A stretch of 64,000 nt of DNA from Anolis carolinensis (lineage: Eukaryota), in the NCBI RefSeq assembly GCF_035594765.1, contig NC_085844.1:31201923-31265922 (forward strand). Direction: 5' to 3'. The position numbers and the translations under genes are program-made. The number at the start of each line of letters is the position of its first letter. Position 1 is the stretch's first letter. This document shows positions 8,336 to 9,730 of this stretch, piece after piece. The notes below the pieces were generated by a model that ran no database searches, was not told the DNA's origin, and was given only the letters and a program-made list of their open reading frames with translations.

Positions 8336-8635
8336 TAAAACACATGAAAAACCAGAATTTGGAACATTGCCCAAAACCTGTTTAGAGATTCAGCAACTTG
8401 AACAGTTCCTTTAAACTTTAGTCTAAGGCCTTTCTACACTGCCAGATAATCCAGTTCAAAGCAAATAATCTGGATTTTATATGGCAGCGTAGAAGGGGCC
8501 TCAATCTCACAGCTCCAGACATTTGATTTTTCTGATTTGTTTTGGCACTATTATTACATATCTGAACTGTCCAGGGCACACAAGGTGATATGTATTGATG
8601 AAAAACATTTAAACAGTAAATATATGAGCAAAATA

Positions 8636-9690
8636 TGTTATGATTGAGCCTCATGGCTCTGTTACTGACAGACGTGGGCGTAAGACTCCTCGAGAGTCAG
8701 ATACTCTCGAGGAGCGAGAAAGAAAAAGACTGCGAGACATTTTTGCAGCACCATCTGACGAAGAGTCTTTTGAGGGGTTTACGGAGAGAATGGAGGAGGG
8801 GCTGGTTAGCTCGGAGGAGGATGAGATGGATTGGACTCGGGTGAGGGAGGAATTGGGTGCCACTGGCCATGATGGGATAGAAGATGAATGGGGACCTTCA
8901 GGATTAGACCCATGGTATAGCTGGAGGGATGGGACGGGATCCACAGCTGGAGATGCTGTGGGGCGTAGTCAGAGGTGTTCCAGCTCTGATGAGGAAAGTG
9001 ATGAGGAAACGCCCGGGTTAAGGAGGGCAGCTGACAGTGATGAGGATTTGTAACTGGCATAAAATGGGGCTTGGGAGCAATTGCAAATTGCGTTGGGCAA
9101 GGTAATCTGGACGAACGCTTGGGATCTGTGTGGGACGCTTTCCTGAAGACTGGTGTGTTTTCGTGTGCTGATATCTTGACCTTCCGTCGTCTTCTTGACG
9201 GACGCCATCTCCTGCTTTGAAAACTCGGACTGAACTGACCACGGCTTGTCTTCCCCCTTCTGGACTTGGAAACTACAAACGTCTGCTTCTGGCTTTGATC
9301 TACGGAAAGGAACTGGGTCTACTCTTCTGCTACAATCCTTGGCTGATCTGTTCGTGTTGGAAATCCTGTCTGCTGTGTGTGTGGGAGCGACGCAAGTTAC
9401 TCTAAGCACAGTGTTGGCAGCAGAGAAGAATCTGCTGCCAATTAGTTGCATTCTTTTGTATCTTTTGTTCCTCGGCTTTTGTTTTGTTTATCCCCAGGCT
9501 GAAGCAAGCAGTTTGTTTTTACCCGGATTAAACTTCGGTTTAATCCGGTTTATCTTTTGAACGTTTTTCCTTGTCCCTTTTTGCTCCTAAAGGCTAATAC
9601 TGCCTGGCCCTTGTATTTTACGGGCATTTTTGAGTTCTGTAATCCAATAAACTCTGTTATCTTGAACCTTGTGGCGTTCTGTCCTTGACA
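8636..9690 (+). mobile_element. Solo LTR of an LTR retrotransposon (probably Gypsy/Ty3 or BEL), 1055 bp
   Basis: TGTTA...TGACA termini; perfect 5-bp TSD AAATA (8631-8635, 9691-9695); TATA-like CATAAAA at 9058-9064; AATAAA at 9646-9651; CpG-rich relative to the flanks. Confidence 0.9.
8640..9053 (+). CDS. LTR U3-encoded acidic, disordered 137-aa ORF with an FxGF (LEDGF-IBD/TND-interacting-like) motif; may be the C-terminal tail of a longer element ORF
   Basis: Uninterrupted ORF from the LTR edge to just before the TATA box; contains KRLRDIFAAPSDEESFEGF, several S-x-x-E/D CK2 consensus sites and basic patches RRGRK/RERKRLR. Confidence 0.55.
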   Translation: MIEPHGSVTDRRGRKTPRESDTLEERERKRLRDIFAAPSDEESFEGFTERMEEGLVSSEEDEMDWTRVREELGATGHDGIEDEWGPSGLDPWYSWRDGTGSTAGDAVGRSQRCSSSDEESDEETPGLRRAADSDEDL

Positions 9691-9730
9691 AAATACATTG
9701 TAAAGTACATGGTAAACTTTCATTTAAAAT

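Follow-up and report, generated by a model that had tools for sequence, protein, structure and literature searches.

Tethering by LEDGF is the textbook account of lentiviral integration into genes, HIV finding active genes through this host protein. Ty5-Sir4 and MLV-BET are examples of integrase C-terminal targeting peptides, and that of Ty1 integrase reportedly binds AC40. Coding sequence in the U3 region of a long terminal repeat (LTR) is familiar from MMTV sag and HIV nef, which are separate genes on spliced retroviral RNAs. In plant CRM group A chromoviruses, the polyprotein itself runs into the 3′ LTR and carries, in the place of the chromodomain, a CR motif thought to target integration (PMC3059260). 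Here, we describe a solo LTR at positions 8636–9690 of a 64,000-nucleotide stretch of Anolis carolinensis contig NC_085844.1 (the window). It belongs to a Tf1/sushi-type Ty3/Gypsy family, and the frame filling its U3 is the C-terminal end of Pol/integrase. At a probability of roughly 55%, we consider it likely that a helix-acidic-FxGF motif in this tail binds the integrase-binding domain (IBD) of LEDGF/HRP2 and tethers the integration complex to transcribed chromatin, replacing a lost chromodomain.

According to PMC9987994, a TND-interacting motif (TIM) consists of a helix, an acidic linker of 8–16 residues and an optional FxGF, and CK2 phosphorylation raises its affinity. The same source treats TIMs as a general module that several TNDs can read, with FxGF mattering specifically for LEDGF/HRP2, every known partner of which has it. 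HIV-1 integrase, as described in PMC9987994 and PMC10854676, has a structurally pre-arranged LEDGF site that is phosphorylation-independent. The anole element is predicted to share with lentiviruses the host reader and the tethering to H3K36me-marked transcribed genes, but it would rely on an unstructured motif tuned by CK2, the kind found in the host's own partners. With Ty1-AC40, Ty5-Sir4 and MLV-BET, it would have in common a short motif for a host chromatin factor in a disordered integrase tail, while differing in the partner and in the coding of the motif inside U3. The likeness to CRM group A, an LTR-coded Pol end at the chromodomain's place, is one of layout only, the anole family not being a member by phylogeny; the anole Tf1/sushi-type tail differs in its host-type short motif, in having a named candidate partner, and in a presumed preference for active chromatin rather than centromeres. 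Self-priming Tf1/sushi Gypsy elements, as outlined in PMC4600332, resemble the family in a primer-binding site (PBS) complementary to the RNA 5′ end, a GPF/SH3 integrase domain and chromodomain-bearing relatives; the difference is that the chromodomain is absent here, replaced by ~30 + 137 residues.

Pol/integrase ends within U3

The LTR features on which this section relies are as follows.

8636..9690, + strand: solo LTR of the Tf1/sushi-type Ty3/Gypsy family (1055 bp; TGTTA...TGACA, with TG...CA ends)
8640..9053, + strand: U3 frame, encoding the C-terminal 137 residues of Pol/integrase (residues 1078–1214 of Pol in full-length copies)
9058..9064, + strand: TATA-like box CATAAAA (32 nt 5′ of the predicted RNA start; also in subfamily C, behind the stop)
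9090..9100, + strand: predicted start of the RNA, with the 11-nt self-primer (exact complement of the PBS)
9174..9175, + strand: exact junction left in R by the loss of an 83-nt GT-AG intron

The frame opens with an ATG at LTR base 5 (8640) and ends with a TAA at 9051–9053, four nucleotides before CATAAAA, just as an earlier sequence-only reading of the window had described. Its product is acidic with multiple CK2-type sites, also in agreement with that reading (39 D/E versus 18 K/R; 15 [ST]xx[DE] sites). A single-sequence AlphaFold2 model of the product was mostly low-confidence, with a mean predicted local distance difference test (pLDDT) score of 59.5. No Pfam family matched the 137-residue tail, and Pfam matches are missing for 19 of the 37 window frames of at least 110 amino acids.

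The sequence-only reading had left two origins for this frame, a C-terminal extension of pol/integrase across the polypurine tract or a separate, nef/sag-like accessory protein from a spliced RNA. Comparison of full-length elements (n = 11) bears out the former: the pol frame crosses the polypurine tract/LTR junction into the 3′ LTR in ten of them and reaches the same stop as the window frame, six carry one unbroken 1214-codon frame from protease to the U3 stop, and in one copy the pol frame stops at the LTR edge. The best 150 genome matches to the tail, picked by score, are all stop-free, with 32 lying inside a 1214-codon frame by hand count. A second family with an unrelated LTR (L129) likewise extends Pol by 106 codons into its 3′ LTR, read-through being a trait of the reptile clade. 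In the solo LTR itself, the frame is probably a passive copy upstream of the promoter and predicted start site, and its expression is unlikely.

The element thus has coding sequence in U3, as MMTV and HIV do with sag and nef, but here it is the end of pol. We regard it as highly improbable that the frame also, or mainly, yields a separate accessory protein from a spliced or subgenomic RNA, or one released from Pol by the protease. The codon-1 ATG retained in every subfamily and the NCBI gene models of 261 amino acids (GPF domain plus tail) for some copies would fit such a protein; however, the ATG is an internal methionine that follows from the LTR 5′ end being fixed as TGTTA(TG), the frame is continuous with integrase, and the element is a Gypsy with no env frame among its open reading frames (ORFs). 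The donor-like AAG/GTAATC that had been proposed for an accessory RNA is indeed present as letters at 9101/9102, but splicing there would give a first exon of 12 nt, counted from the predicted RNA start, and the site adjoins the self-primer, whereas the used donor lies at 9174/9175 and the sole demonstrated intron of the family is in R. Assembled contigs of four runs, compared with one element, showed no joint from 9101/9102 or into the 3′ region; these runs are not on record as RNA, and such contigs cannot show absence. Of the 28 parsed subfamily-B copies (L091–L120), 24 retain the donor of the 83-nt R-region intron; the other four, like all 30 window-like LTRs, have lost the intron precisely. 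In at least two subfamilies, spliced RNA has given rise to LTR lineages that lack the intron.

A TIM-like motif in the tail

Two features of the tail make up the TIM-like segment.

8736..8780, + strand: TIM/IBD-binding-motif-like sequence, residues 33–47, DIFAAPSDEESFEGF (CK2-type Ser39 at 8754–8756; FxGF, here FEGF, at 8769–8780)
8706..8744, + strand: predicted helix, residues 23–35, ending on the anchor Phe35 and holding the basic patch RERKRLR (low-confidence AlphaFold2 model from a single sequence)

All three phenylalanines of the tail lie within DIFAAPSDEESFEGF. This helix-acidic-FxGF arrangement, the most informative feature of the tail, had gone unremarked in the sequence-only reading. 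Phe35 and FEGF are unchanged in 89/89 copies (60/60 and 29/29), and the eight residues between Phe35 and Phe44 form an acidic linker whose Ser39 fits [ST]xx[DE] and is swapped only for Thr, in subfamily C. Upstream, at residues 23–34, 11 of 12 codons keep their residue in three subfamilies, seven of them with synonymous changes.

The motif is identical at 11/15 positions to JPO2 motif 1 in the LEDGF IBD-JPO2 chain 6emo_A, the DIF being shared. Nothing else in the PDB matched the tail at E ≤ 10 (E 1.5 for this hit), and with a 42-residue query the JPO2 match ranked second (E 0.13). In post hoc shuffles of the tail, FxGF arose in 0.4% and F-x(7-9)-FxGF in 0.0085% of cases (8.5e-5; 200,000 shuffles), and the score of the tail against the host motif was attained in 0/20,000.

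In the host genome, a full-length LEDGF is annotated (P0123), and a further locus has LEDGF-domain sequence. A PSIP1/LEDGF copy without introns (L043; G000:C2:143718346), its IBD region interrupted by one stop, is probably a processed pseudogene. At a zinc-finger locus of the host on C6, presumably CDCA7L judging from its motif, the motif is 10/15 identical to DIFAAPSDEESFEGF; the DNA of the two agrees at 26/45 positions and that of the flanks at 5/18 and 11/42, and the Ser codons differ (TCT versus AGT). Recent capture from host CDCA7L or CDCA7 was considered and rejected as unlikely given the low DNA identity, the unrelated flanks and the different Ser codon family, which together favor convergence or a very old capture. 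The likeness to host TND-interacting motifs (JPO2/CDCA7L, CDCA7, MLL1 and IWS1) lies in the helix-borne Phe, the acidic linker with its Ser and the FxGF; the difference is that the motif here is coded by the LTR of a mobile element. PogZ is a transposase-derived host gene with a TIM. Because the tail holds a conserved close match to a host LEDGF-binding motif, the element is likely tethered to LEDGF or a related protein.

A coincidental FxGF match in a generic acidic, disordered extension that bears a nuclear localization signal and serves charge, nuclear import or nucleic-acid chaperoning is, in our view, unlikely. The weak database E-value, the generality of read-through tails in the reptile clade (the 106 codons of L129) and the constraint on a second block of the tail, described below, all speak for it. 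Such an extension would, however, leave unexplained the TIM spacing of all three phenylalanines (shuffle frequency 8.5e-5), their invariance across the 89 copies, the restriction of linker Ser changes to Thr in subfamily C, and the recurrence of the same motif in a separate lineage.

Selection on the tail

To compare whole tails, 30 window-like LTRs picked by DNA were set against 30 subfamily-B LTRs picked by protein, with the window included among the 60. The ratio of nonsynonymous to synonymous substitution rates (dN/dS) was 0.19 in the pol frame versus 1.7 and 2.2 when the frame was shifted. None of the 60 aligned LTRs has an indel within the pol frame, and a single in-frame stop was seen among them. 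The ORF singled out in the sequence-only reading is, therefore, more than a chance opening. Across three subfamilies, the whole-tail dN/dS was 0.19–0.26, demonstrating purifying selection.

This selection is uneven along the tail. In five single pairs of subfamily A and subfamily B, dN/dS at residues 21–50 was 0.04–0.08, as low as in the GPF domain (0.04–0.05); the value was 0.41 at residues 51–90 and 0.04–0.09 at residues 91–137. A third subfamily, C (P0298; 79–84% DNA identity; 29/30 loci parsed), has the same 137 codons and a dN/dS of 0.07–0.10 at residues 21–50. Across these comparisons of residues 21–50, Fisher p ranges from 2e-4 to 1e-6 per pair. The constrained distal part includes one further feature.

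8919..8972, + strand: second invariant block, residues 94–111 (18/18 residues invariant in three subfamilies; four with synonymous change)

Since synonymous changes in this block number only four, DNA-level constraint may contribute, and the block may represent an enhancer in U3 or else another protein motif. The first 20 codons (8640–8699) show almost no synonymous change (dN/dS 0.5–3.4), which suggests that the LTR end is constrained at the DNA level.

Chromodomain absence and a parallel motif

The chromodomain (PF00385) gave no match at E ≤ 0.1 in the frames of one element (L033) and none in P0283; it is carried by most of the 120 nearest integrases among the matches listed. A tree of the reverse transcriptase (RT), RNase H (RH) and integrase (IN) domains, built from 22 rows with P0031 left out for short coverage, placed the family as sister to P0019 and P0075 (99/98), of which P0019 retains the chromodomain. 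This nesting among chromodomain-bearing reptile elements suggests that the chromodomain was lost in the family.

The same type of motif is found elsewhere in the tree. Wall-lizard rows P0039 and P0066 carry F-x(8-9)-FxGF past the chromodomain and form a separate clade, and a tree holding the motif-bearing rows together was rejected (approximately unbiased test, p-AU 0.029), suggesting two gains of the motif, or one gain followed by losses. The P0039 cluster, the P0058/P0066 clusters and P0336 have one or two motifs of the helix-F-linker-FxGF type directly past the chromodomain. By Pfam, that chromodomain is either full or, as in P0058 and P0254, has ceased to score. FxGF lay downstream in three of 126 other proteins with a GPF domain, P0336 alone showing the TIM form. 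A wall-lizard-type TIM-bearing family was not found in the anole genome among 30, 8 and 20 loci, and no tail homologues outside the family were found among 1511 candidates. In a library of 1.84 billion sequences, the tail was the basis of the match for just two of the best 150, P0297 and P0298, and a metagenome scan returned two loci, matching the GPF part only.

Sister Gypsy families (L062–L090 and L121–L150; P0029, P0033 and P0019) keep the chromodomain, and their Pol also reads into the 3′ LTR. Their tails mostly end in RRS[A/L/M]RI/L, the anole ones with an acidic DEEEN[LM][GD]F stretch. This ending resembles RRSARLSA, given as the HMGN nucleosome-binding motif in PMC12487698; a PDB search with the RRSAR-type tail end gave 0 matches.

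The element family

Close copies of the LTR are numerous, the 40 scored out of 2728 candidates being 96–100% identical to the window LTR. Elsewhere in the genome, paired LTRs ~5.1 kb apart are 96–99% identical to it, and in 9/9 copies compared the two LTRs differ at 0–2 of 1049 sites. Full-length elements have a gag frame of 276–278 codons, overlapped by the pol frame in −1 phase. In element L033, Pfam identified protease (PR), RT, RNase H, integrase and a Tf2-type SH3/GPF domain, in the order PR-RT-RH-IN-SH3/GPF; its only two ORFs of at least 200 amino acids are the upstream gag and pol, and no env frame was found.

The PBS is not tRNA-like and is the exact complement of window positions 9090–9100 in 11/11 full-length copies. 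In predicted RNA folds (minimum free energy and centroid), the first 11 bases pair with the PBS. PMC4600332 describes such self-priming from the RNA 5′ end as a Tf1-type arrangement, and this match places the predicted RNA start at 9090, past the TATA-like box. The family is, then, a very young, abundant, self-priming Tf1/sushi-type Ty3/Gypsy of an anole lizard. An anole chromodomain Gypsy was reportedly described in 2009; the family itself may well be catalogued already. The remaining features of the solo LTR are listed below.

8631..8635, + strand: left 5-bp target-site duplication, AAATA
9691..9695, + strand: right 5-bp target-site duplication, AAATA
9646..9651, + strand: polyadenylation signal AATAAA, the sole AATAAA of the LTR

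Tandem arrays of several element copies were seen at G000:C4:80501358-80520663, C3:215268926-215296267 and C2:200843884-200856046. Some database gene models (L153; P0298 and P0269) also contain parts of the element: P0298 fuses a LINE-like frame to the U3 frame, and P0269 is a Pol fragment named as an OGFRL1 isoform, both probably annotation artefacts of insertions.

Proposed mechanism and insertion sites

We propose that genomic RNA would begin at ~9090 in the 5′ LTR, so that translation of U3 would be confined to its copy in the 3′ LTR, where it would form the C-terminal end of Gag-Pol. Judging from the overlap of the gag and pol frames, Gag-Pol would be made by a −1 frameshift, and the tail would presumably stay on mature integrase as a disordered extension. 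Its TIM would dock on the IBD of LEDGF/HRP2, with affinity possibly tuned by CK2 phosphorylation of Ser39, and would hold the complex at H3K36me-marked genes, in the chromodomain's place.

Several observations weigh against this proposal. The helix at residues 23–35 rests on a low-confidence model, the JPO2 match in the PDB is not significant by itself at either query length, and the shuffle tests were devised after the fact. The three subfamilies amount to three related, non-independent contrasts, and choosing B and C by protein score favored intact frames. Constraint extends beyond the motif (dN/dS 0.04–0.26 at residues 91–137), and the nonsynonymous rate of the motif region is not significantly below that of the rest of the tail (p 0.27). 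A TIM could, moreover, serve other TND proteins. Finally, outside the six largest contigs, insertions fall short of what the genome share of those contigs predicts, with 9 of 138 (146 rows with neighbours merged) versus 15.3% expected (p 0.003), these small contigs being presumed gene-rich microchromosomes and a coarse proxy. Chromodomain families are alike in this respect (9/150; hand count, not de-duplicated). Positions along the large chromosomes are near uniform and uninformative (mean 0.49; Kolmogorov–Smirnov p 0.047). Gene targeting finds no support in the small-contig proxy, although the signal would be blurred if genic insertions were selected against.

The absence of a chromosome-level difference from chromodomain families is also what might be seen if the motif bound a TND protein for another purpose, such as nuclear or mitotic chromatin retention or the shielding of new copies from silencing, or acted through IWS1, TFIIS or ELOA. 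That TIMs are a module for several TNDs (PMC9987994) is compatible with this explanation, which we nevertheless judge somewhat unlikely: FxGF matters specifically for LEDGF/HRP2 in the same source, and in two lineages the motif accompanies an absent or eroded chromodomain, which suggests replacement. Docking on LEDGF/HRP2, with a consequent effect on insertion-site choice, is therefore the reading that we favor as a prediction from sequence.

Significance for lizard retrotransposons

No report of a TIM or IBD-binding motif in a retrotransposon integrase was found in the literature searched, whose coverage left out most subscription papers. Such a motif in an LTR-coded retrotransposon integrase tail appears new, the LTR-extended integrase layout being known from plant CRM.

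A broader picture can be drawn only tentatively. Lizard Gypsy elements may at least twice have evolved a mimic of the LEDGF/HRP2-binding motif while losing or eroding a heterochromatin-reading chromodomain, thereby switching insertion from silent to transcribed chromatin via the host protein that HIV uses. U3 would then be a clade cassette for tether motifs, with a TIM here and an HMGN-like RRSAR in the sisters. If true, LTR-coded integrase tails would gain a named partner, the plant CR motif being given without one in the available text of PMC3059260, and a vertebrate retrotransposon that reached the LEDGF pocket by copying a host linear motif would be a clear example of convergent evolution. 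Because the family is young, abundant and shares its genome with chromodomain-bearing sisters, the effect of such a swap of targeting modules would be testable on existing genome, annotation and chromatin data.
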